64,000 nt of DNA from Bacteroidota bacterium (GCA_049324295.1 JBMOKQ010000043.1:10746-74745), one strand, 5' to 3'; counted from the stretch's first letter, positions 14,252 to 27,241 are shown. Translations and numbers: made by a program. The notes: generated from the letters alone by a model not told the origin.

Positions 14252-17200
14252 TTATTTAACTAATGTAATATTCCCTTTGTATGTATAGGTTGTATTGTTT
14301 TCACAAATTACTTCGCAGGTATATATATATACATCTGGAGATGCTTTAACTCCCTTTATAAGTCCATCCCAGCCCTGCGATTTATCATTCGGTTGAAAAT
14401 TTGATTTTTCGAAAATCACTCCTCCCCATCTGTTAAAAATTCTAAATGATTTTACAGAACGAATTCCTGAGGACCTGACCATTAATATATCATTTAATCC
14501 ATCCCCATCAGGTGTAAATACATTTGGAATAAAGACTTGAGCACTTTCGCAGAAAACTTTAATATTAATACTGTCTGCTGCAATACACCCATTCGCCGTT
14601 GTTCCCTTTACAGTATAGGTGATATTATTTTTAATAGTTGCTATTGGAAGTGGACATGTATTACAGTTGATATTATTATTGGGTTTCCATTCCCACTCAG
14701 CAACCGGCCCGTTTGTTATTATACTATTTAAAGGAAGTAAAGTGCCGGTTGCGAGGAGTCTGTCAGGACCAAGATCGATAGATAATGAAGGGTAAACCCT
14801 TATAGGAAGCCTTATGGTATCAGCACAGCTATAAATGGTAGTAGCTACAAAAATAGTTAGATAATTTCCCGGAAATTGAAAAACAGTAGGCGCATTTATA
14901 GTTGCAATTGTAGATCCGGAAGAGAAATTCCAAACAGTACTTTTAATTGGATCAAGTGAAAAAACATTTGCTGCAAAGGGAACTACCTGACCAACACAGG
15001 CAATAGAGTCCTTATTAGTATTAATTTGGGGAATATCCCAGATTGTAATTGGTATAGACTTACGAATCGTATCTCTGCAACCACTATTTCCTTCAGTAAT
15101 TTGTCTTACCTGCCAGGTACTAGGTGCATTGTATATATGGGTGGGATTTCTATCGTTACTATTACTTCCATCTCCAAAATCCCACCGTATTGATTTAACT
15201 CCATAAAAAGCTGTAGACCGATCTGTAAAAGCTACAATAGTGTTTCCGCAAGCCTGCTCAATTGCGTGTGTAAATCCACCCGTAACATCATCCACTCTTA
15301 TAGAATCAATACCATTTAGCCGACTTCTACACTTTCCTTCTGGTCCTGCAAGTAGGTCAACGGTTGGATAATATGGCCCTGCTGCAGCATATTTATGGTA
15401 AATAATTTTCTCAGTTGAGACCAACACATTGCCATCCCCAAAACTCCATCGAATAGAATCTACACCTGGAGCCGCCACCTCAAATCTTGCTGCATCACTT
15501 AAACATAATGGAGAAGTATTATGTTGAAAAATTCCTTTGGGCCCGGTTATTGTAACATTTTTTGTTGCCTCAAACCTACATCCGCCCGGATATTGCGCCG
15601 TCATAATCACCTGGAAAGTACCTGTTGACCTGTAAGTATGCGAAACCTCATCACCTTCATTGAATGCACCATCACCAAAATTCCATGTTGTTTTTTTAGA
15701 AGGCAGAACCAGATTAGTAAAAGTTACATCAAATGGGAAACAGGTTCCAACACTATCTGACATTAAAAAATTCCCAACAGAAGGTCTAACAAAAATGTAG
15801 ACCAAAGAACTGACTTTTATACAAGGAGATACAATCACAAGTCTTCTTACAAATATTGTTGACAATGGTGTCATATTTAAATTAGCTCCGGTTTGACCCG
15901 GGATATCGACCCAATCAGTCTTACCATCTTTACTTTGTTGCCATTGATAATCGAAAACATTATAAGCCCCGATTGGCAATTGACCCGCAATGGCAACTGC
16001 TTGTCCCGGGCAAACAGTCAGAGAGGTAGTGTCAATAATATTATTAAAATCAGGAACTACTTCTATAGGAATTACTGATGTATCTGATAAATTACACCCT
16101 CTTGATACACCTGCCGAAATTGAAATGATTCTGGCAGAAAAACTTTTTTGAATATTTAAAAAACGAATCGTAGTTGAGGTTACAGGCGTGTCTACCCAAT
16201 TAACAGAAATAGCAGGATTGAATGAATATTGCCATTTTGAAACCACACCTCGAAATGTATTTCCTGTATTGATGGTGATATCATTACCAACACAAGCCTT
16301 AATAGCTGAAGCAACAAGAGGACCTGTTATTGGTTTATCGAACACAATTACTTCCATTGTATCTCTTGTTGTTACACAGGCATTATTATTAATTGACCAT
16401 GATAATCGATAAGTACCAGGTCTATTGAAAACAAATACAGAAGTCGGACTGTTTGGATTGCGTATAATACTTGAACTTCCGGAGGGGGCTGGGCTAAGTA
16501 ATGTCCAGGTACCAGTTTCAAATGTTGGATTTAAAAGATTATTACCTGAAAGTGTTACGGAATCATTGCCAGAAGTGAATGAGCAAACAATTTTATCTGA
16601 TCCTGCATTTGAATTTGTCATAGTGGGTGTATTCACTATTTCAACCTCATCTGAAGAACTAGGACAAGCCCCTGGACCGCTTATCACCCAACTAAATTTA
16701 TATGTTTGCCCGGGTTGTAACCCGGTAATCTGGGTATTACGCAATGAAGGATTTGTGATTATCATAGCAGGTCCTAATGTCTGGTTCCAGACACCTGTTC
16801 CGAAAGATGGTGCATTGCCGTCTAAATTTGTTACTGTTTGATTACATAATCTCTGATCTGTTCCAGCATTTGAAGGTGTAACCGCAGGTACAACAGTAAT
16901 AGTAGTTGCCGTAGAATTACCTTGTGGGCAAACACCACTTTGTACAACAGCTCTATACAAAGTTGTTGTTGTTAAATTTAAATAACTCAGAGATGTTGTT
17001 GTATTATTAATACTAGTCCAGCTAGAGCCATTATTAACAGAACGTTCCCAGCGTATGACAGAGCCTGTTTGACCAGACAAGTTTACTGTCCCACTATTTC
17101 CCGTAATACAAACTGTCGCATTGCTGGATGTAACTCCGGGCACAGTTGTTAAAGATGTATTTACTTGTGTAATTGCACTAACTGCCTCATTTGTACATGA

Positions 17201-20200
17201 TCCTGATTGCTTTACTACAACTCTTACACTAAAACTATTCTGAACATTAGTAAAAGATACTGTATTGTTTGTTTGAATAATATCTACCCAGGTGTTATTA
17301 TCTGCAGGAGTTAAATTGTATTGCCATTTTTGAATTACACCTATAACGCCGGAAGTCGATATAGAAACTGTTGAACCCTGACAAACATTTATAACGGAAG
17401 CAGACAAAGTACCTGCATTAGGGTTATTATATATAGTAATTGTAATGGATGGAGAAACAACGGAACAAGCACCACTAGTGACTCTCCTACGATAATAAGT
17501 GGTCGTTGTTAAAATAGGAGGCTGATAATCTTTTGCTGTTGCAGTAGTAATAGTATTCCAGGTACTATTATTGGTAGAACTCTCCCATTGATAGGTATAA
17601 GAGCCATTACCTCCGGTTGGCAATTCACCCACTAGTAACGCAGTTGGATTACCCTCACAAATTTGCTGATTAGCTGAAATAGTAAAGTTGGCTAATGAAG
17701 GCAAAACTGTAATGCTGATAGTATTACTGGAAATGACTGTACAGGCTCCGCTACTCACTATTCTTCGAAATAATGTTGAAGTAGTGATTGCGCCCGGGTT
17801 ATAAGAGCTGTTATTTCCGTTTGAGGGTACATTGATCCATGACGTACCATTATCTGTTGAAAGCTGCCATTGATAGGTCAGTGTTCCGTTTCCTCCTAAA
17901 ACACCAGGTCCGGTAAGTGTAGTTGCTGAAGACCCGACACAAATCGTTTGATCGCTGGAAATAGTATTGTTGGATAATGCAGGTGTAACAACAATAGCTA
18001 CACTTGACGAAACAACATTGCAAACTCCACTCGTAACCCGCCTTCTGTAATAAGTGGTAGCACTAATTGTTGGTGGTTGATAGTCTTGTAATGTGGCACC
18101 GATAATTGTTGACCAGGTACTATTATTAGTAGAACTTTCCCATTGATAATTGTATGTACCCAACCCACCTGTAGGTAGTTGACCGGATAATAAAGTCACT
18201 GGACTTCCCTGACATATGTTTTGGGCACTTCCTATTCCGGTATTTGCTAATGAGGGCTGTACGGTAATAGTAATGGAATTAGAAGTTGAATTACAGGCAC
18301 CACTAAATACTTGTCGTCGGTACGTGGTGGTGGTACTTATTGTTCCTGGATTATAAGATATAGATGTTCCTCCACTGGATACATTTGACCATGAAACACC
18401 GCCGTTAGTTGAAAACTCCCATTGATAAGTAAAAGAATCTGTACCCCCCGTGGGTGTACCAGTAAGAGTAGAGGGGCTTGTTCCGGCACAAATAGTTTGG
18501 TCTGCTGTAATAGTATTACCAATAATCGCATTCGTAACATTTACAACAATTGAGGAGGAGTTGCTTCTGCAGGTAAATGCATTTGTTTGCGTAACATAAT
18601 AAGTAGTAGTACCTGCAACAGTTGTATTTGGCGTTGGAGCTGTAGTAGAGCCGCCAGTTAATCCACTATTGTTATACCATAAAACAGTATTTCCAATAGC
18701 TGTAGATGCTGTTAGAGCAGATGGTGTTGCATTTAAGCAATATTCTATTGGGCTTATTACACCTGGTGCTGAAGGTCTTGGATTTACTGTTATTGTAAAT
18801 GAATTGGAAGGCCCGGCACATCCACCGGCAGAAGGAGTAACCGATATTGTGGAAACGACAGGAGAACCTGTATTATTTATTGCAGTAAAAGCATTTATTG
18901 TTGCTGCATTTCCAGAACTAGCCAACCCTATCGATGTGAGATTATTTGTCCACGCAAAAGTTGTTCCTGTAACATTACCCGTAAATGTGAAGGATCCAAC
19001 TGTTGTGCCTGTACATATTTCCTGGTTAGCAGGTACAGTAGCATTAGGTATAGGCTTAATTTCTATAGAGCGGGTTAGAGTTGTTGTACCACATTCATTT
19101 GCAACTTCTAATTGAATGGTATAAGTTCCTGGTGTAGCATAATTAATACTACCCGGTGATGCACTCGTTGAACTAGCTGGACTGCCCCCTGTAAAAGACC
19201 AATTATATGTAGGTGCAGTGGTAGCATTACAATTGGCGACCGTAGCTGAAGGTGAAATAGAACCCACACAAATTGAAGTTGGTATACTGTTTAATGTTAC
19301 AGTTGGTTTTGATTTTACGGTAATGGTTCTTGTAGCAGCGGTTGATACACACCCCCCTGGACTTGTTACAACTAAACTGATAGTATAGGTTCCTGGGTTA
19401 ACAAATGAAAATTCTGGATTTTCTGAGGTACTACTACCTGATACATAATTAAATTGAGAAGTAGATGGCGTACATCCGGAAGCGGCTGAATAAGAAACAT
19501 TCCAACTATAAGTATTAACGCCACAGGAGGGCGCAGAACTAGTATTTGTGGTTTTTACTAATAAATTATTGCAACCAGTATTTTCATCAACAGTAAACGA
19601 AGCTGTAGGTATGGCATTTACGCAAATTGTTTTTGTTATTTCTGAAGCACCACAAGTATTATTCCCTGTTCGAAGTTTTATGCTGTAAGTTCCTGGTGTC
19701 GTAAAATTTAGTGTAGGGTTCGTTGATCCGGATATCCATAATGCTGGGTCATTTGAACTATTGTCGTTACCAAGTGCTCCTGATGTTACTGTAAACCCTG
19801 TAGAAGGTGTAATTGACCAAACAGTTTTCCCTGGTGAGCATACCCCTGTAACACTAACAATGGTATTTGAAGAAGGACTACTGTTTAGCACAGCTGAACT
19901 ATTCGTACATAAGTTAGTATTCGAAATGGTAAAATCTGCAACTGGTTTTTGTGAAACGTATATCGGACTAACTACTACATCAGAAACCCCACATGGATTA
20001 GATGCTTTGAGTGAAGTAGAAAAGGAATTATTATTTGCTGAAGGCGAAAAGCATGAAGATGTTAAAAATGTATGCGTAAATGTTGCTGGTGCTGGGTGAT
20101 TAACAACCAGAGGAGTTGTACCATCGTTAACAGTAATCGTATAAACTGTACCTGGAGGGTTCGAGGTAGTATTTGATATTGGAAATGTAAGTGCATCTCC

Positions 20201-21097
20201 TGTACATATTACTGTATTTCCTGGACTACCGAATGCAACTGCAGGCGTGGATCCTACAAAAACATAATTTGTTGCAACATTTTCGCATCCATTTTGCCCT
20301 GTTACTGTAAAAGTAAGTGTGTAAATGCCTGTTGTATAATTTTGAGTTACTCCGGGACTAGAGAAAGTGGCATTTTGATAATCAGCACTACCATTACCCC
20401 AAACTATCTTATAAGCCGTATTAGTAGTAGTAGATCCGTTTAAAAATGTAAAACTTGCATTAGATGCACTACAATTAGTATAGTAGGTGGCATTGTTATA
20501 TGTAGTGCTGCCAGTACCTAATAAAGTTGTAGAAGGCAACTCTTTTTTTACAATATTTTGTGTGATTGTATTACTACAATTATTAACATCTGTTACAGTC
20601 AATGACACATTAAAAGTCTGTGTTCCATTACCAGGATTGCCAACAAATGACTTTACTGGATTTTGTAGTGTTGAAGTATTGCCAGTTCCAGAATTACCGT
20701 CACCAAAATTCCAGGCATAAGTTAGCGATGTGCCTATAGAGGTATTAGTAAACGTTGTATTTACATTAGCACAATCGTTTTGCGAAGAAACTGTAAAACC
20801 AGCAGTTGGGTTAGTATTTACAATCAAAACAACTGCCGGAGTAGTTATTGTGTTATTAATTAACGCTGTGTAACTACCGGATGTAGTTGCATTAATGGAA
20901 ATACCTGTTTGAGCCGGGGTAATTTCAACATTATCTTTTAGCCATTTAAAAGTTGCTCCCGATGGTGCATCAACGATGGTAAATGTTTTCGTTTGCCCAG
21001 AACAAATATTTAATGACCCTGAATAGGATATTGTTTGTGAATATAGAATGACAGGACTAAACAAAAAGACTAAAATAATGAAAAGAAGACCCCGCAT
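14252..21097 (-). CDS. 2281-aa PKD/Ig-like repeat surface protein with gliding-motility-associated C-terminal domain (T9SS type-B CTD)
   Basis: Signal peptide, multiple WNFGDG PKD repeats, C-terminal FIPNVFTPDGDGLND...WDG...YKGNITLVK. Confidence 0.93.
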   Translation of the reverse strand: MRGLLFIILVFLFSPVILYSQTISYSGSLNICSGQTKTFTIVDAPSGATFKWLKDNVEITPAQTGISINATTSGSYTALINNTITTPAVVLIVNTNPTAGFTVSSQNDCANVNTTFTNTSIGTSLTYAWNFGDGNSGTGNTSTLQNPVKSFVGNPGNGTQTFNVSLTVTDVNNCSNTITQNIVKKELPSTTLLGTGSTTYNNATYYTNCSASNASFTFLNGSTTTNTAYKIVWGNGSADYQNATFSSPGVTQNYTTGIYTLTFTVTGQNGCENVATNYVFVGSTPAVAFGSPGNTVICTGDALTFPISNTTSNPPGTVYTITVNDGTTPLVVNHPAPATFTHTFLTSSCFSPSANNNSFSTSLKASNPCGVSDVVVSPIYVSQKPVADFTISNTNLCTNSSAVLNSSPSSNTIVSVTGVCSPGKTVWSITPSTGFTVTSGALGNDNSSNDPALWISGSTNPTLNFTTPGTYSIKLRTGNNTCGASEITKTICVNAIPTASFTVDENTGCNNLLVKTTNTSSAPSCGVNTYSWNVSYSAASGCTPSTSQFNYVSGSSTSENPEFSFVNPGTYTISLVVTSPGGCVSTAATRTITVKSKPTVTLNSIPTSICVGSISPSATVANCNATTAPTYNWSFTGGSPASSTSASPGSINYATPGTYTIQLEVANECGTTTLTRSIEIKPIPNATVPANQEICTGTTVGSFTFTGNVTGTTFAWTNNLTSIGLASSGNAATINAFTAINNTGSPVVSTISVTPSAGGCAGPSNSFTITVNPRPSAPGVISPIEYCLNATPSALTASTAIGNTVLWYNNSGLTGGSTTAPTPNTTVAGTTTYYVTQTNAFTCRSNSSSIVVNVTNAIIGNTITADQTICAGTSPSTLTGTPTGGTDSFTYQWEFSTNGGVSWSNVSSGGTSISYNPGTISTTTTYRRQVFSGACNSTSNSITITVQPSLANTGIGSAQNICQGSPVTLLSGQLPTGGLGTYNYQWESSTNNSTWSTIIGATLQDYQPPTISATTYYRRRVTSGVCNVVSSSVAIVVTPALSNNTISSDQTICVGSSATTLTGPGVLGGNGTLTYQWQLSTDNGTSWINVPSNGNNSSYNPGAITTSTLFRRIVSSGACTVISSNTISITVLPSLANFTISANQQICEGNPTALLVGELPTGGNGSYTYQWESSTNNSTWNTITTATAKDYQPPILTTTTYYRRRVTSGACSVVSPSITITIYNNPNAGTLSASVINVCQGSTVSISTSGVIGVIQKWQYNLTPADNNTWVDIIQTNNTVSFTNVQNSFSVRVVVKQSGSCTNEAVSAITQVNTSLTTVPGVTSSNATVCITGNSGTVNLSGQTGSVIRWERSVNNGSSWTSINNTTTSLSYLNLTTTTLYRAVVQSGVCPQGNSTATTITVVPAVTPSNAGTDQRLCNQTVTNLDGNAPSFGTGVWNQTLGPAMIITNPSLRNTQITGLQPGQTYKFSWVISGPGACPSSSDEVEIVNTPTMTNSNAGSDKIVCSFTSGNDSVTLSGNNLLNPTFETGTWTLLSPAPSGSSSIIRNPNSPTSVFVFNRPGTYRLSWSINNNACVTTRDTMEVIVFDKPITGPLVASAIKACVGNDITINTGNTFRGVVSKWQYSFNPAISVNWVDTPVTSTTIRFLNIQKSFSARIISISAGVSRGCNLSDTSVIPIEVVPDFNNIIDTTSLTVCPGQAVAIAGQLPIGAYNVFDYQWQQSKDGKTDWVDIPGQTGANLNMTPLSTIFVRRLVIVSPCIKVSSLVYIFVRPSVGNFLMSDSVGTCFPFDVTFTNLVLPSKKTTWNFGDGAFNEGDEVSHTYRSTGTFQVIMTAQYPGGCRFEATKNVTITGPKGIFQHNTSPLCLSDAARFEVAAPGVDSIRWSFGDGNVLVSTEKIIYHKYAAAGPYYPTVDLLAGPEGKCRSRLNGIDSIRVDDVTGGFTHAIEQACGNTIVAFTDRSTAFYGVKSIRWDFGDGSNSNDRNPTHIYNAPSTWQVRQITEGNSGCRDTIRKSIPITIWDIPQINTNKDSIACVGQVVPFAANVFSLDPIKSTVWNFSSGSTIATINAPTVFQFPGNYLTIFVATTIYSCADTIRLPIRVYPSLSIDLGPDRLLATGTLLPLNSIITNGPVAEWEWKPNNNINCNTCPLPIATIKNNITYTVKGTTANGCIAADSINIKVFCESAQVFIPNVFTPDGDGLNDILMVRSSGIRSVKSFRIFNRWGGVIFEKSNFQPNDKSQGWDGLIKGVKASPDVYIYTCEVICENNTTYTYKGNITLVK

Positions 21098-21418
21098 TCG
21101 AGAAAAATTAACTAAGTGTGTAAATAATTATTGTTAGTCGATGGGGGCAACCTAAAATACAATGGTGAAATAAAAATAGTCATTCTCACGTGGGTTTTAA
21201 TTAATTATTTGCCTAATCACTTTTTTACAATTAAATGAAATACAAACAAGTAAAGTAAAATTTAAGCAACACTGTAATCAAGGACCCGATAACAAATGGT
21301 GTAGTGTTTATTGCTTATTTCGCCATCTCCATTACGGGCATCAATCTTTTCAAGTTCAAGCTATTCGATTCTTCTAACATTTTATTACTGGTATTTATAA
21401 TTGAATTATTTGATAGAC

Positions 21419-22186
21419 TTATTCCTCTGAGATAACAGATAATTCTAACTGGTTATTTTCTGTCGTCGTCTTCTCCTTCTTCCCCCTCACCTTCGCCGTC
21501 TTAAACGGCTTTATCAACCCCGCATCCATCTTATCCGTTACAATCTTATGCACAGCCGCAAGTATGATCTCATCTTCACATTTTTCGTTGTACCTGGCTT
21601 TGATCAACTTCTTAATGCATTTCAAAACCGCATCAGAGCAAATGATGCCTGCAATATTGTAAGGGTCGGTAGCTTCACATTTATTCCAGAGCGGTTTGAA
21701 GGAGTTTTTCACCACGCTTTCTTTGTGCAGGTGTTGTAAATGATTGGCTGCATTTTTTAAAGCAGTAACATCACTCAGGTCAATGGCAAAGATTAAGCGG
21801 GATGATATGGGTTGCTCAAAAATGATCTTATAAAACTCAAAGTTCTTCCCGTTGGTGAGCAGGGCATATTCAATGCCTTCATTGGCGCCATAATTTACTG
21901 TTTGCCGTAAATGTTTTTCGGATAACTGGAAGGAAAGGGCTTTTACTTCAACCAGGAAATGCCTTGTTTTGTTAACCTGTATCACATAATCGGCATAAGT
22001 GCCCTTGATCATGTATTCTGTTTTTATTTCTTCCAGTTGCTTATAACCCAATACATCTGAAAGAAAACGGTTGATCATGATACGGGTACCCGATTCGTCG
22101 AGCTCTTTGATGTTGCCATCTAAAAAATCTTTACGGTATGCTTTCAGGGAATTGAATAGCTTTTGTTGCTTTAATGCAGTGAGCAT
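21419..22186 (-). CDS. Stand-alone HsdR N-terminal (type I restriction endonuclease-like PD-(D/E)xK) domain protein
   Basis: DESGTRIMINRFLSDVLGY, EY.IKGTYADY, LVEVKA, Q...Y, LLTNG; ORF open to 22243. Confidence 0.85.
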   Translation of the reverse strand: MLTALKQQKLFNSLKAYRKDFLDGNIKELDESGTRIMINRFLSDVLGYKQLEEIKTEYMIKGTYADYVIQVNKTRHFLVEVKALSFQLSEKHLRQTVNYGANEGIEYALLTNGKNFEFYKIIFEQPISSRLIFAIDLSDVTALKNAANHLQHLHKESVVKNSFKPLWNKCEATDPYNIAGIICSDAVLKCIKKLIKARYNEKCEDEIILAAVHKIVTDKMDAGLIKPFKTAKVRGKKEKTTTENNQLELSVISEE

Positions 22187-22360
22187 AATATTTGTTTTGG
22201 TTGATGAGAGCAGGCTCAATTCAAAACTAACAGGTAGGAACATCTTTTTATTACGGTAAACCGTAAGCCATTAGGAGTTAGCTTTTAGCCATTAGCTGTT
22301 AGGCGTTAGGAAGAGGTGTTAGCCTAAATGCTAATGGCTAATAGCTAACCCCTATCGCAT

Positions 22361-23026
22361 TTATAACAAACCTGCATTACTACAAAACACCATCAACTGC
22401 TGGTTATTGGTAAAACCAAGTTCATCCCTGATCTGACTCAGGCGTTTCTCGATGCTGCTTAGACTGGAAGGTTTGATGTGCTGCTGTTTAAGATAAGCCG
22501 GTATTTCATTTTGCTGGTAACCTTGGCTAAGCAAACGGATAATCGTGATATCGAAATCTGTGAACTCGTATGTATTTGAACGCTTGATCAGTTGCGTCAA
22601 TGACCTGGGATAGTATCGTTGCCCCTTTGCAAGTGCCTGCATCGCCGACTTTAATTCCTGCACATCATGCCTTGCCTTACGCACATAGGCATCTACTTCA
22701 TGGTTCTCAAACAGGTTGTGTATATCGGCAGGACGATGCTGCCCGGATAAGATGAGGATAAGGATACCCGGCTGAACCGCACGAACAGCCCGTATGAGCT
22801 CAATGCCATCAGTTATCTTTTGAGCAGTTCCATCATCTTCAAAAGACAGATCGGTGATCAGCAGGTCGTAGGGTTCACCCTTTTGTTGAGCCAGTTGAAT
22901 TTTAGCTAAGGCATCATCGCAATAAAATGCGTAATCATACTGCTTCACTTTCAGGTCATCCATTGTCTTCTGCACAGAAAGGTTGGCAAACTCCTGGTCT
23001 TCGGCAATAATAACTTTATCAATCAT
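22361..23026 (-). CDS. Response regulator (REC + divergent LuxR-like HTH)
   Basis: VIIAED, DLLITDLSF, ILILS, AYVRK; C-terminal SSIEKRLSQIR. Confidence 0.9.
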   Translation of the reverse strand: MIDKVIIAEDQEFANLSVQKTMDDLKVKQYDYAFYCDDALAKIQLAQQKGEPYDLLITDLSFEDDGTAQKITDGIELIRAVRAVQPGILILILSGQHRPADIHNLFENHEVDAYVRKARHDVQELKSAMQALAKGQRYYPRSLTQLIKRSNTYEFTDFDITIIRLLSQGYQQNEIPAYLKQQHIKPSSLSSIEKRLSQIRDELGFTNNQQLMVFCSNAGLL

Positions 23027-24690
23027 GCTTTACTGGATTGAAGCGGAAAGCGGATGGAAATAGATGCCCCAGCTTTATCGCTTTTTCCAAAAATAATATC
23101 CCCGTTTAATGATTGAATACGGTTAACCGTATTGTGCAATCCATTACCGTACTCAATGTCTGCAGGGAATCCCTTTCCATCGTCGCTGTAGTTGATCGTA
23201 CCGGTATTATTATCTTCTTTGAATTTTATGACCACGTTGCCGGCGCCACTGTGTTTTTTCATATTGGTCATGATCTCCCGGAGGATCAATAACAGTTGAT
23301 TTTTTTGAACACTGGTCACCCTGTTCCAGAATACGGGTTGGTTACCCACTGCAAATACCTTGGTTTGCTCATTGGTAAATTCATTGAGCAGGCCATGGAT
23401 CTGTTTGTCGTAATCTGTATCATCTGTGTAAGCAAGTTCTTCGTAAGATATATCCCGTGATTTTTCATACAGGTCCTCAACTTTTGTCAGTAAGGGATCA
23501 CGCTCAATTTCCTCGCTGTGTTCCAGTTCGTTCATAATTCCGTACAATCCATTGGCCACCACATCGTGTATTTTTCGGGAAGTGTTTAATCTGGCGTCTC
23601 TTATTGATAGCTCGGCTTCCTGTTTGATGCGTTTTCTGCGCTTACGGTACCATGCTACCAACCCGATAATAATGCTTACTGCAAGCAGGATCACACTATA
23701 TGTAAGCAAACGCTGCCGGGTAATATGTTGCTGTAAGGCAAGATTATCGGCCTTATTCTTCTGCACTTCGTATCGTATAAAAGCAAAACGGTTGCGGGTG
23801 GTGTCTTTTGATCGTTGAAGACTGTCGTTGAGTAGTTTAAATTCCTGGTACCAATATTCTTTTAAAACCGGATTGCGGGTAAAACTTACCAATTTATCAA
23901 TTGCTTCCAGTATGTCTTTCGCACTGTGAATGCTCTTTGCTTTTTCAAACATTTTATTGGCATACCACAATGCCGAATCGGGATTTGATTTTGCATAATA
24001 ATCGGCAAGGTGTGCATAACTCGCATTAAGTCCCTGGTGGTATTGGCTATCGACGCGGATCTTTAATGCAGTCCAGAATTCCGGTAACACAGGGTAGCCA
24101 CGGTTTTGCAGCCACCTGCTGTTCGCCCTGTTATCTATTATCCTGGCAACAAGTGACTGGTCGCTTGGTTGCATGACCAGTATGGAGTCATAAATTACAA
24201 TCGCACCCTTGTAGTTCCCGCTTTTCTGAAGTGCTGTGGCTTTTCCATTTAATAGATCATAAATAAAACCAGTTCCCCGGGCAAAATATATCGCTTTGTT
24301 ATAGTAGCTGATGGCATCTCCGTATGATTTTAAATCCAGGCTTACGTTTCCCAGTATATTGTAAACATAGCTCAATTCCTCATGGTGTTTTTTATTACGC
24401 TGATCAAGTGTATGAATGGCACCGATCAGGCTTTCCTGGGCACCATACAGATCGCCTACATACCATTGCATTTCTCCCATGAATTTGTAAGCGCTGCCTT
24501 TTTTAAGGGTATCATCGGGATTGTTTACATAACGGTTAAACATCAGGAAAGCTGAATCCCATTGATCATAATACCATAAGCGATAGCCGTTATCATAATC
24601 GGTGTACCTGGTCTTTTTTTCCTGCGATTGAACAGTCAGGCCTGACAATAGTAAAGCGGTAGCCAGTAATAAAGAAAGCGTGTATTTCAA
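23023..24690 (-). CDS. Membrane sensor histidine kinase with periplasmic TPR repeats
   Basis: Signal peptide, TPR helices (YNILGNV, YYNKAI), one TM segment (about aa 330-350), KIHDVVANG H-box, NMKKHS, DDGKG, GNGL. Confidence 0.92.
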   Translation of the reverse strand: MKYTLSLLLATALLLSGLTVQSQEKKTRYTDYDNGYRLWYYDQWDSAFLMFNRYVNNPDDTLKKGSAYKFMGEMQWYVGDLYGAQESLIGAIHTLDQRNKKHHEELSYVYNILGNVSLDLKSYGDAISYYNKAIYFARGTGFIYDLLNGKATALQKSGNYKGAIVIYDSILVMQPSDQSLVARIIDNRANSRWLQNRGYPVLPEFWTALKIRVDSQYHQGLNASYAHLADYYAKSNPDSALWYANKMFEKAKSIHSAKDILEAIDKLVSFTRNPVLKEYWYQEFKLLNDSLQRSKDTTRNRFAFIRYEVQKNKADNLALQQHITRQRLLTYSVILLAVSIIIGLVAWYRKRRKRIKQEAELSIRDARLNTSRKIHDVVANGLYGIMNELEHSEEIERDPLLTKVEDLYEKSRDISYEELAYTDDTDYDKQIHGLLNEFTNEQTKVFAVGNQPVFWNRVTSVQKNQLLLILREIMTNMKKHSGAGNVVIKFKEDNNTGTINYSDDGKGFPADIEYGNGLHNTVNRIQSLNGDIIFGKSDKAGASISIRFPLQSSKA

Positions 24691-24713
24691 GCGGCCTTAT
24701 TTGCCTTAAATAT

Positions 24714-24745
24714 AAAAAGAAAGACAGAGTAATCTCTGCCTTTCT
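24714..24745 (-). terminator. Intrinsic terminator between the peptide gene and the kinase gene
   Basis: Minus strand reads AGAAAGGCAGAG-ATTA-CTCTGTCTTTCT followed by TTTT. Confidence 0.75.
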
Positions 24746-24754
24746 ACGGTGTCA

Positions 24755-24940
24755 TTACAGCCCTGTAGGTGGTGGTGGTGGTGGCACTGGTGGTTTTGGA
24801 GTGCCACCCGTTTCGCCACCGGTATCATCGAGAGTAGAAACGGTGGTGGAATGGGCCTTTTTGCAGTTGCCATGATTCTCAGCGGTATGGGTTGGGTTGA
24901 AGCATAAGAATGTGGCCAACCATATTAATAGTTCTAACAT
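24755..24940 (-). CDS. Small putative secreted peptide (61 aa; DTGGETGG + polyproline C-terminus)
   Basis: ATG start after an A-rich leader, hydrophobic N-terminus, co-oriented upstream of the TPR kinase, own terminator. Confidence 0.7.
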   Translation of the reverse strand: MLELLIWLATFLCFNPTHTAENHGNCKKAHSTTVSTLDDTGGETGGTPKPPVPPPPPPTGL

Positions 24941-25158
24941 TGTTTAATGATTTAAGATGGTGTAAAAAATTGCCCTTACCGGGTAGCGACCCCGGCAGAG
25001 ACTGTTTTGTAAGAAGCGCTTCTTACGATGGGAAGGAAGGGCGTTGATCGCAGTCTGGCTAGCAACTTCCCATACTTGCTAACCTCGCTGCGATCGCTGC
25101 ACTCAACAGATCATTTGATTTGTTGTAACAGGTACCAAACGATCACAATGCAAACTTA
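24941..25158 (-). ncRNA. Candidate structured 5' leader with pseudoknot
   Basis: TAAGTTTG -7 box at 25158-25151; nested stems 25046-25053/25088-25095 and 25057-25065/25076-25084; loop 8-mer complementary to 25028-25035. Confidence 0.5.
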
Positions 25159-25317
25159 ACAGCGGCTATAAGCCTTTGCGGAGTTGGATTCCAAAAATTC
25201 CAATCATTCCAAAAATTCCGGGAAACCGTAATCTTCAACACCAGTTGGGAGCTTATTTTGATCCGGTAATTCCGAGAATTCCGGTTATTATGTACATTTA
25301 GAAGGAAGAGAAATTAT

Positions 25318-26289
25318 ATGCGGCTCACTCACACAGCATACATCAAACTGGTATTTCGTACTTATCAATTGTTACGCAGTACCCCCGAATTTTCTCCTGC
25401 ACTGAAGCAGCCAACACCGGCGAGTATCCGTAAAGAATGTCTGACTCTTTATAAGGAACGCCCTGAAAAAAAAGATGAGCCAATTCTCAGATCATTCTTC
25501 GGACCACTTCCAGAAAATAAATCATTCTTAGCCTCCATCGAAAATTTCCCTACTGATGGATTTAGAGCATTCTCAAATTATCTGAAGGGAAAGGCAATAA
25601 AAACCGATGATAAAAATGTAGAACTGCTAGCATGGCTGATAAACTTTCCGCATAGGCCCTTCCGGTATGGAATGGATGTAATTTTAAGCGAGAAAGAAAA
25701 AACAATTTTAAATAGCGATGAAGGCGTCGGTGAAAATTTAGCGAAGGATATTGAAGAAGAAGAGAATAATACGACTGAAGATGTATTGAGTCAACCTCCG
25801 CCCAATGAGCTGGAGGCCACAATAATACCAGCTACTGAAGCACAAATGCCTGTTGTTCCGATAAATCCCGGCAGCGAGATAAGACCAGTGAAAAAGAGTT
25901 TAACAGTTAATAGGCAAGGGCTGATCCTTGGGATACCTTTATTTTTTGCGATTATTTCATTAGGATTTTATCTGCTCTATGACAAAGGTGCTAAATGTAT
26001 GTATTGGACAGGTGATCACTACGAGAAGATAGATTGTGATGCAGATATAAATGACAAGGATTTATTTAATGAAGAAAGATGGAAGAATTTTAAAAAGATC
26101 ACCAGTCCGGATACGATAACCACGTGGTCGATTGGAAAACTTTATTACCTAAAAACTAACGGGGCATTGGAGTATTTTACCGCAGGAGGCAAGCATCCTG
26201 TATTTGTTACCCGCACTTTAAAAGTGCTTTCACCTTATATGTTTGATACATACCTTCGAAAAAAGAGGCTCCTGGTAAAGACTCATTAG
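25318..26289 (+). CDS. Hypothetical bitopic membrane protein
   Basis: 323 aa; cytoplasmic N-domain, acidic linker, one TM segment (LILGIPLFFAIISLGFYLLY), exported CMYW...C domain. Confidence 0.75.
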   Translation: MRLTHTAYIKLVFRTYQLLRSTPEFSPALKQPTPASIRKECLTLYKERPEKKDEPILRSFFGPLPENKSFLASIENFPTDGFRAFSNYLKGKAIKTDDKNVELLAWLINFPHRPFRYGMDVILSEKEKTILNSDEGVGENLAKDIEEEENNTTEDVLSQPPPNELEATIIPATEAQMPVVPINPGSEIRPVKKSLTVNRQGLILGIPLFFAIISLGFYLLYDKGAKCMYWTGDHYEKIDCDADINDKDLFNEERWKNFKKITSPDTITTWSIGKLYYLKTNGALEYFTAGGKHPVFVTRTLKVLSPYMFDTYLRKKRLLVKTH

Positions 26290-26331
26290 CCGAATCAAAC
26301 AAAAAGCCTTAGTAACAGATAACGATCTGCT

Positions 26332-26598
26332 ATGAAAATTCCTTTTGCTATCTTCCTGTCTTTGCTTTTCTGTTCTTGCGATCAAACAGGCCGCAAAACA
26401 GATGAACTTAACCGGCGTGTTACCCGCCTCGAGCAAAGAATGGATTCTTTAACCAATACCAAAACTGGAATTTCCGGCGACTATACCAATAAGGGAACCA
26501 TTACAGAAAATAGTCGTTGCCGGGGAATCACCAAAAAAAGAACACAGTGTAAGCGGAAAGCAAAAACCAATGGGTATTGCTGGCAGCATGGCGGGTGA
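26332..26598 (+). CDS. Small lipoprotein with C-terminal DUF5763-like Cys/His motif
   Basis: Lipobox LFCSC; C-terminal RCRGITKKRTQCKRK...YCWQH. Confidence 0.75.
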   Translation: MKIPFAIFLSLLFCSCDQTGRKTDELNRRVTRLEQRMDSLTNTKTGISGDYTNKGTITENSRCRGITKKRTQCKRKAKTNGYCWQHGG

Positions 26599-27241
26599 TT
26601 GATGGTTTCAATCCACCCATTGCATTCATTCAAAATTTTTTCTTTTAGCTTTTTTGCGCTATATAAAATTTTTTCATCGTACACCATCACCTGGTATACC
26701 ACAGGCTATGATAAGGAAAACCCTTACGGGGTACAAGGCAGAAACAAATTGTCATTCCAATAGTTTGGTAATAGCCAGTAAGTCTTCCGCAATTGGGTTA
26801 GCTCATTGTTCAACCCGGGGAGCGAAAGAGAAAGTCTCACAAGTAAAATGAAGCTGTTGAGAATACCTATTTCACTAAACACTTGATTTACAACGAAATA
26901 CGTTTAGTGTACCAGCCATTATTACACCTGTTTCCTGATCTGCTGAAACGCTGTCTGGTAAAGGGTTTGCAGATATTTTACCAATGTTAACACACAGTAA
27001 ATACACACTAAACACACAGTACAGCACATATTTTGTGTGATACTGTTTGTTTATACTGTTTTAATACTGTAGTAAACATATGTAAAACCACTCCTGATTG
27101 GAAACGCAACAAAATATGCTGTACTGAAAAACAGTATAGCCGGGATGCAGATAAAATAGCTTGTAAACAGGTCTCGCTTTGAGAGCAGCACTCTTTGCTG
27201 TGCTGAGAGGTTTTTTATTCGGCTAATAAACACAGTAACTT

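Follow-up and report, generated by a model that had tools for sequence, protein, structure and literature searches.

Within a 64,000-nucleotide (nt) stretch of the genome of a Bacteroidota bacterium (GCA_049324295.1, JBMOKQ010000043.1:10746-74745; hereafter the window, with positions counted from its first nucleotide), we found a four-part locus on the minus strand that consists of an open reading frame (ORF) for a protein of 61 amino acids (aa), an intrinsic terminator, a sensor histidine kinase with a tetratricopeptide repeat (TPR) domain, and a LuxR-type response regulator. Judged by conservation, coding pattern, and synteny in ~50 independent loci, this arrangement of four elements is far beyond chance, and we class the locus as a two-component system whose accessory protein is small and probably exported, and which comes with an apparently new structured leader RNA. 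The reading we favor, to which we assign a probability of about 0.55, is that the small protein is exported or tethered and engages the periplasmic TPR sensor of the kinase, which would make this a three-component system, or a four-component one should a divergently encoded 323-aa membrane protein join it. Literature searches returned no account of this cassette. The genomes searched were samples, and the distribution figures given below describe what was found among those searched.

The small protein gene and its coupling to the kinase

The small protein gene lies at 24755-24940 (minus strand) and is supported by the ORF itself, homologues, codon-position pattern, and synteny. Its product, MLELLIWLATFLCFNPTHTAENHGNCKKAHSTTVSTLDDTGGETGGTPKPPVPPPPPPTGL, is encoded by 61 codons and comprises an uncharged hydrophobic N-terminal segment, a linker rich in Thr, Asn, and His, a near-invariant DTGGETG motif, and a Pro-rich tail. 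The hydrophobic N terminus and two cysteines (Cys13 and Cys26) are as described in an initial annotation of the locus made from the sequence alone, and the DTGGETG-Pro segment that it singled out proved to be the conserved part of the protein. A codon alignment of eight loci contains 311, 257, and 769 differences at codon positions 1, 2, and 3, respectively, with synonymous changes abundant within the DTGGETG motif and the Pro run, a pattern that, on this alignment, is the one expected of a translated product under purifying selection. A protein search retrieved 12 independently called homologues of 56-65 aa with the consensus MIxLIIWLAAFLCxNPxHTxxNHGNCxxxHxTTVSTxxDTGGETGGTPKPPVPPPPPPPTG, and the core D-T-G-G-E-T-G-x-x-P-P-x-P-P is exact in 33 of 48 distinct peptides (47-66 aa). 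Neither Lys nor Arg occurs within the first 14 residues of any of these peptides (48/48); their linkers are rich in Thr, Asn, His (11%), and acidic residues, their tails are 58% Pro, and their mean net charge beyond the hydrophobic segment is -2.5. Pfam and NCBIfam yielded no match for eight small proteins taken from near and distant loci. The initial annotation had allowed that the ORF might be untranslated or not conserved; its coding substitution pattern and its conservation in ~50 loci speak against both, and on this evidence it is a genuine, translated, conserved gene.

The source genome carries a single copy each of the small ORF and the kinase gene, whereas searches of 24 other genomes from its genus recovered neither. 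In each of the species-genome loci retrieved via the kinase (7/7), the ORF precedes the kinase by 60-90 nt, as it does in the 17/17 metagenome loci retrieved by the peptide pattern alone and in both loci (2/2) retrieved via the upstream RNA. A search with the sensor domain turned up relatives in 36 of the 300 other Chitinophagaceae genomes sampled, one copy each and at 34-54% identity; as sampled, the distribution of the cassette across the family is patchy. The small ORF is directly upstream of the kinase in 26 of the 29 loci fetched from this search, and the three exceptions comprise one contig end, one inserted gene that leaves the ORF ~1 kb upstream, and one true absence. The insertion, in locus L055 (775-1260), is a Sel1-repeat gene on the opposite strand. 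Kinase relatives with the upstream ORF span 34-80% identity, and overall the ORF precedes the kinase in ~50 Chitinophagaceae loci, with the motif DTGGETG-x-x-PP-x-PP almost invariant. In these data, the one-to-one coupling of the small protein with this kinase is strongly supported by gene content and order, as is a partnership between the peptide and the kinase.

Between the ORF and the kinase is an intrinsic terminator (T2; 24708-24745, minus strand), also recognized initially, in which a 12-pair hairpin (24718-24745) is followed by the U-run TTTTATATTT. Its stem begins 9 nt past the small-ORF stop, and it is the sole terminator-like site within 22000-25400. Comparison of 46 distinct loci placed a hairpin and U-run behind the small ORF in 45, with a stop-to-stem gap of 5-25 nt and a conserved stem core (AAGGCAG/CUGCCUU), and this recurrence makes the proposed role of the terminator in setting the peptide-to-kinase ratio plausible. 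The kinase starts with TTG (24688-24690) inside CTTGAAA, a sequence that recurs in close loci, and TTG is apparent in many distant relatives; such a start suggests that the kinase is deliberately translated weakly. Taken together, T2 and the TTG start support production of the small protein in excess, a terminator-based design also known for precursor peptides in bacteriocin operons.

The nearness of the terminator to the Pro codons bears on an alternative in which the ORF acts in cis, as a leader or arrest peptide whose translation controls read-through of T2, either by a polyproline stall that responds to elongation factor P (EF-P) or proline supply or by SecM/MifM-like arrest. The window has several features that such a peptide would share: the Pro codon run ends three codons short of the stop codon, closely followed by the stem of the terminator, the hydrophobic N terminus is ~44 residues before the Pro run, as in force-sensing arrest peptides, and the most conserved residues fall in the last ~25, which would occupy the exit tunnel. 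Known systems of arrest or of attenuation, however, depend on a fixed geometry, whereas here the distances from motif to stop (~7-24 residues) and from stop to hairpin (5-25 nt) are both variable, the longest Pro run is two or fewer in 13 of 48 peptides, and the tails include HLPNRP, IPPRNP, and PKPPIPTGN. Moreover, the N-terminal and linker features are conserved well beyond the needs of a stalling signal, distant relatives (see below) are ordinary lipoproteins, and the genes downstream are not secretion factors. We regard a cis-acting role as highly improbable, and specifically rejected polyproline-stalling attenuation and SecM/MifM-like arrest because neither the Pro run nor the spacings are conserved.

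The TPR sensor and proposed envelope signaling

The kinase gene (23023-24690, minus strand) encodes 555 aa. Pfam matches TPR_1, TPR_2, TPR_8, TPR_12, and TPR_14 as well as HATPase_c (residues 464-551), and NCBIfam gives partial matches to NarX, NarQ, UhpB, and LiaS. An AlphaFold2 model built from a 54-sequence alignment (mean predicted local distance difference test [pLDDT] 82.5) consists of a signal-like N terminus, 14 sensor helices at residues 31-270 (pLDDT >90) that form a TPR superhelix, and one unbroken helix (274-391) that contains the stalk, the membrane segment, and the dimerization and histidine phosphotransfer (DHp) region with the H-box His375. The H-box, IHDVVANGL, is of the HDxxxxxL type, His375 is invariant in the 54 sequences, and the H-box and HATPase_c domain together provide the features of a HisKA_3-type kinase. 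Placed between a signal-like N terminus and a single transmembrane (TM) helix and fused to a histidine kinase, the TPR domain agrees with the periplasmic sensor of TPR repeats that had been described at the outset. The overlapping response regulator (221 aa; 22361-23026, minus strand) likewise stands as described, sharing 4 nt with the kinase gene. It has a receiver (REC) domain and a probable LuxR/NarL-type C-terminal domain; the former scores 27.3 bits against Pfam Response_reg, slightly under the 30.2 cut-off, and Pfam GerE gives no hit, while the protein aligns over its full length to the NCBIfam models for RcsB (residues 5-213, E = 2.6e-11) and FimZ. Regulator identity across related loci is 55-92%, the top values exceeding any kinase value.

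Structural comparison with Foldseek returned DesK and VraS as the best matches to the cytoplasmic half of the kinase and, for the sensor, TPR domains of LGN/Pins/GPSM2 that were solved with long groove-bound peptides (E ~3e-7, target TM-score 0.56-0.64). As modeled, the sensor fold is of the type that holds long peptides in its groove. The TPR superhelix of LGN encloses extended peptides of 20-30 residues (from NuMA, Inscuteable, and Frmpd), but LGN is a eukaryotic cytoplasmic scaffold that is 13-16% identical to the sensor, and the likeness, being structural, shows capacity and not function. Mean column identity is 0.59 for the sensor, which contains clusters of invariant residues (invariant positions include D45, K64, N148, N187, R212, Y225, H227, Y231/Y232, and D238), 0.62 for the catalytic half, and 0.48 for the TM segment, the least conserved part. 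This profile fits a periplasmic ligand site and not a TM-TM contact; specific TM-TM pairing of the small protein with the kinase was rejected on account of the low conservation of the kinase TM segment.

A phylum-wide sample contains distant relatives of the sensor, at 21-37% kinase identity, in three other Bacteroidia families, one of which has several kinase copies per genome. By a count made by eye, a small ORF is located 30-115 nt upstream in ~23 of 32 distant TPR kinase loci, and the regulator is 3' of the kinase in most of them. Small proteins of two of the families have an uncharged, hydrophobic N terminus, with tails of the form ...GTGGDTGNNPPR or ...TSGETGQILPPKK. The third has canonical lipoprotein signals (MKK...FSC) and tails resembling GPGDDxIVxPPPKK, among them ...GPGDDVIIITPPKKP, ...DGPGDQPVIVLPPPK, and ...DGDGTGGNSSGQTPTTPPKK. 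Paralogous kinases of one genome (L092, L099, and L101) are paired with differing small proteins. Because distant relatives carry lipoprotein signals, which constitute the best available evidence on this point, the tail of the small protein is probably outside the cytoplasm, and the same signals suggest that the distant relatives are tethered. The ~680-aa TPR kinases of another family (L093, L098, L101, L104, L106, and L108) have a second class of small secreted proteins upstream, which start MKKxALTxGLFSLVMV and contain repeated G-x-S/G-R-K-x-D motifs. These distant loci suggest an upstream small exported ORF as a wider design rule for such kinases.

The properties of the family also bear on the quorum-type signaling that was proposed initially, in which the small protein would be processed and released as a diffusible, density-dependent pheromone that returns to the periplasm to activate the TPR kinase, as in agr and com systems. 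In favor of this proposal are the order of small peptide, kinase, and regulator, a promoter that may be autoregulated and has GGAAT repeats upstream, the excess of peptide that the terminator would yield, and a sensor whose fold is of a peptide-binding kind. The DTGGETG-Pro core, however, is near-identical across genera, with no pherotype diversification, and a peptide of 40 residues would need a two-way route across the outer membrane. The conserved cassette is without a peptidase, ABC exporter, or AgrB-like gene, and its conserved neighbors (the 323-aa protein, an 88-aa protein, and an HSDR_N_2 protein, described below) gave no match to peptidase or transporter models. Further, the lipoprotein-type signals of distant relatives suggest tethering, and the kinase is of the HisKA_3 type with one TM segment, not a polytopic HPK10 kinase. 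We therefore consider a diffusible pheromone very unlikely. A ribosomally synthesized and post-translationally modified peptide (RiPP) precursor was rejected as well, the conserved cassette having neither a modifying enzyme nor a C39 transporter.

In the three-component system that we favor, most transcripts would end at T2, leaving the small protein in excess over the kinase, and the hydrophobic N terminus would take the small protein into or across the inner membrane, acting as a signal-anchor or atypical signal peptide in the clade of the window and as a canonical lipoprotein signal in distant relatives. The acidic, His/Asn-rich linker and the DTGGETG-PPxPP tail would then be exposed in the periplasm, where the tail, lying in the groove of the TPR superhelix, would set the kinase/phosphatase balance in one direction or the other. 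From there, the signal would travel through the stalk-TM-DHp helix, reach His375, and be relayed to the LuxR-type regulator, which probably binds the GGAAT arrays between both divergent promoters. The small protein, as the main induced product of the regulator, would be a feedback partner of the CpxP/MgrB kind. The true input would be whatever alters availability of the tail, be it proteolysis, a failure in trafficking of the small protein, or metal bound by its His-rich linker, and the leader RNA, with its own terminator, could provide a second input on small-protein expression.

Several points weigh against this reading. The N terminus encoded in the window has no Lys/Arg n-region, standard cleavage site, or lipobox, and, since a stop codon is found two codons 5' of the ATG, it is not extendable to gain a basic n-region; topology is thus deduced only from the relatives and from charge. 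Lipoprotein identity for the window protein itself was rejected, given the sequence T-F-L-C with Leu at -1, the lack of a lipobox, and the loss of the Cys in two family members. Homology of the distant lipoprotein ORFs to the window protein is not demonstrable, the resemblance consisting of shared architecture, position, and tail composition, and it was by eye that the upstream ORFs at distant loci were counted. The motif is invariant and hence offers no co-variation to examine against the sensor, and the sample is dominated by two clades. Finally, the divergently encoded 323-aa protein is equally co-conserved, has a periplasmic domain, and could be the true partner of the tail.

This last protein (25318-26289, plus strand) belongs to no known family: Pfam, NCBIfam, and PDB sequences contained no match, and a Foldseek search with its model found no fold match. 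In its predicted architecture, a cytoplasmic N-domain made of helices is joined through a disordered linker to a single TM helix, beyond which is a small periplasmic domain that is beta-rich and contains two invariant Cys. The motifs ELLAWLIDFxHRP and CMYWxGDHYExxxC are found in its cytoplasmic and periplasmic domains, respectively. The small protein might accordingly belong to the module without acting on the TPR domain, serving instead as a partner of the 323-aa periplasmic domain or simply as one of the products that the regulator controls, for example an envelope peptide or one that binds metal. The 323-aa gene is divergent from the kinase gene in 49 of 54 loci, and at least 11 distant loci have a homologue 5' of the kinase gene; its periplasmic domain is conserved, the GGAAT arrays face both promoters, and the composition of the small-protein linker looks metal-binding. 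We nevertheless judge this arrangement rather unlikely. The small gene is always directly upstream of and co-oriented with the kinase and is never grouped with the divergent gene, distant kinases with no detectable 323-aa homologue nearby keep their upstream small ORF, and TPR superhelices are classic receptors of peptides in extended form.

Comparison with known signaling systems

Small exported, membrane-bound, or lipid-anchored proteins modulate several histidine kinases from the periplasmic side, as CpxP and NlpE do for CpxA, MgrB for PhoQ, and LiaF for LiaS. Such accessory genes are often beside the kinase gene (liaFSR) or induced by the kinase (cpxP and mgrB), and LiaS is a HisKA_3 kinase. 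Within Bacteroidota, the C-terminal domain of PorA binds the kinase PorY in the periplasm of Porphyromonas gingivalis, which offers a precedent for a kinase of this phylum that takes a protein domain as its periplasmic ligand (PMC12152298). What the present locus has in common with CpxP, NlpE, MgrB, LiaF, and PorA is a small exported or membrane protein genetically coupled to a kinase, a coupling that is strict in ~50 loci; there is no sequence or fold relationship. Unlike these accessory systems, the locus combines a sensor made of a seven-repeat TPR superhelix with a putative partner of 47-66 aa that has a DTGGETG-PPxPP tail, and expression appears to be gated by a dedicated leader RNA and an internal terminator.

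A closer parallel for the sensor is FimS of P. gingivalis, the kinase of FimS/FimR, which has a periplasmic sensor of eight TPRs and an undefined signal (PMC11053733). The two systems share a Bacteroidota kinase with a periplasmic TPR sensor (~eight TPR motifs in FimS), but the TPR region of the present kinase matches the FimS model NF053520 only weakly (E = 5e-5, far below the curated cut-off), and its catalytic core is HisKA_3/DesK-like and paired with a LuxR-type regulator. A genome search using the FimS model gave only matches dominated by the catalytic domain, none above the cut-off, and so established no link of orthology.

The initial annotation had also invoked RRNPP systems. With their receptors in Firmicutes (Rap, NprR, PlcR, PrgX, and Rgg), the locus has in common a TPR domain, here a putative receptor, and an adjacent small gene for the presumed peptide ligand. 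RRNPP receptors are cytoplasmic and either carry a helix-turn-helix domain or act as phosphatases, and the peptides they bind undergo secretion and processing before Opp takes them back up. This model does not carry over: the TPR domain of the locus is part of a HisKA_3 histidine kinase and is predicted to be outside the cytoplasm, and its peptide motif shows no diversification across loci. In the comparison with agr (AgrD/AgrC/AgrA) and com (ComC/ComD/ComE), the order of precursor, kinase, and regulator is the same, as is a likely autoregulation. In other respects the comparison fails, since the kinases of those systems are polytopic (5-7 TM segments) HPK10 proteins, their regulators are of the LytTR type, and processing and export are carried out by AgrB or ComAB, none of which is found here.

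More broadly, we can imagine, though we rather doubt it, that the locus represents an ancient five-part module distributed across Bacteroidia families and made up of a divergent membrane protein, GGAAT arrays, a riboswitch-like leader, a small exported protein, and a periplasmic-TPR kinase with its regulator, in which the Pro-tailed protein would be a sentinel that, as a ligand of the TPR sensor, reports envelope trafficking, proteolysis, or metal status. Were this so, periplasmic TPR kinases, FimS among them, would gain their first defined class of ligand, and the leader would represent a new class of structured regulatory RNA. Periplasmic TPR kinases are common in Bacteroidota, and a co-inherited protein with an invariant tail is a concrete candidate ligand for them. 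Current annotation misses much of the system, the small protein and the divergent membrane protein being outside curated families.

Leader RNA, promoter region, and neighboring genes

The interval first annotated, 22361-24940, contains the elements listed for it but does not reach three further conserved parts, namely the leader of the small gene, the GGAAT arrays, and the gene for the 323-aa membrane protein. Over a 377-nt region 5' of the small ORF, nucleotide conservation is above that of the neighboring proteins. Alignments and a covariance model define a structured 5' leader RNA of the small gene at 24941-25158 (minus strand); the model, built from 23 sequences, finds the full ~200-nt leader in 45 of 50 loci and weaker copies in the three other Bacteroidia families. 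All elements of the leader are on the minus strand. It contains two long hairpins, P1 (25109-25144) and P2 (25046-25095), the loop of the latter, ATGGGAAG (25066-25073), being complementary to the downstream segment CTTCCCAT (25028-25035) through GGGAAG/CTTCCC. These are followed by a hairpin formed by the perfect palindrome GTAAGAAGCGCTTCTTAC (25009-25026) and by the hairpin and U-run T1 (24964-25002), which is terminator-like and stands ~25 nt before the ATG. Changes on both sides are seen in 41 of 43 leader pairs, and 89.8% of cells are paired, compared with 31-44% when partners are slid, in an alignment that was fitted to the model and so favors it. An Rfam scan of 21000-27000 gave no hits at E <= 1 for the leader, and a focused scan gave only chance-level matches (E >= 4.6). 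The leader is thus a candidate for a new class of riboswitch or protein-binding regulatory RNA. Hardly any variation is seen in the palindrome GTAAGAAGCGCTTCTTAC, also at loci whose flanking proteins share only 35-40% identity. It may act as RNA, in the form of a sequence-specific hairpin, or as DNA, in the form of a 7-2-7 operator within the transcribed leader.

At the 5' edge of the leader is a candidate Bacteroidota -7 box, TAAGTTTG (25151-25158, minus strand; consensus TAnnTTTG), and a box of the TAnnTTTG type, in one copy TATGTTCG, is found at the same aligned position in 25/25 distinct close leaders. By comparison with the published consensus, we infer that it belongs to a promoter. Further upstream, GGAAT direct repeats with 9-nt spacing extend over 25188-25282 (minus strand), with four copies in one cluster (25188-25219) and two in another (25269-25282). 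The clusters are between the divergent promoters, and GGAAY repeats with equal spacing are conserved across the broad family. We consider the arrays candidate binding sites for the regulator, as the 9-bp repeat period fits the "7+2" spacing of NarL/LuxR-type sites.

Beyond the divergent gene, an 88-aa lipoprotein-like protein is encoded at 26332-26598 (plus strand) and is syntenic in many loci; it ends in a Cys/His-rich basic motif, ...TQCKRKAKTNGYCWQHGG, and weakly matches the GvpO N-terminal model. On the other side of the locus, co-oriented and downstream of the regulator, a syntenic gene at 21419-22243 (minus strand) encodes a 274-aa HSDR_N_2 protein (Pfam PF13588; PD-(D/E)xK-like). The protein, which resembles the N-terminal part of a restriction enzyme, is 80-94% identical in most close loci, where kinase identity is just 52-80%. 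For a gene that has no evident signaling role, it is unusually well conserved. Farther downstream, at 14252-21097 (minus strand), is a gene for a repeat-rich, adhesin-like protein of 2281 aa. Synteny of this gene was seen in at least four related loci (L019, L020, L022, and L046), and the system may control it as an output.

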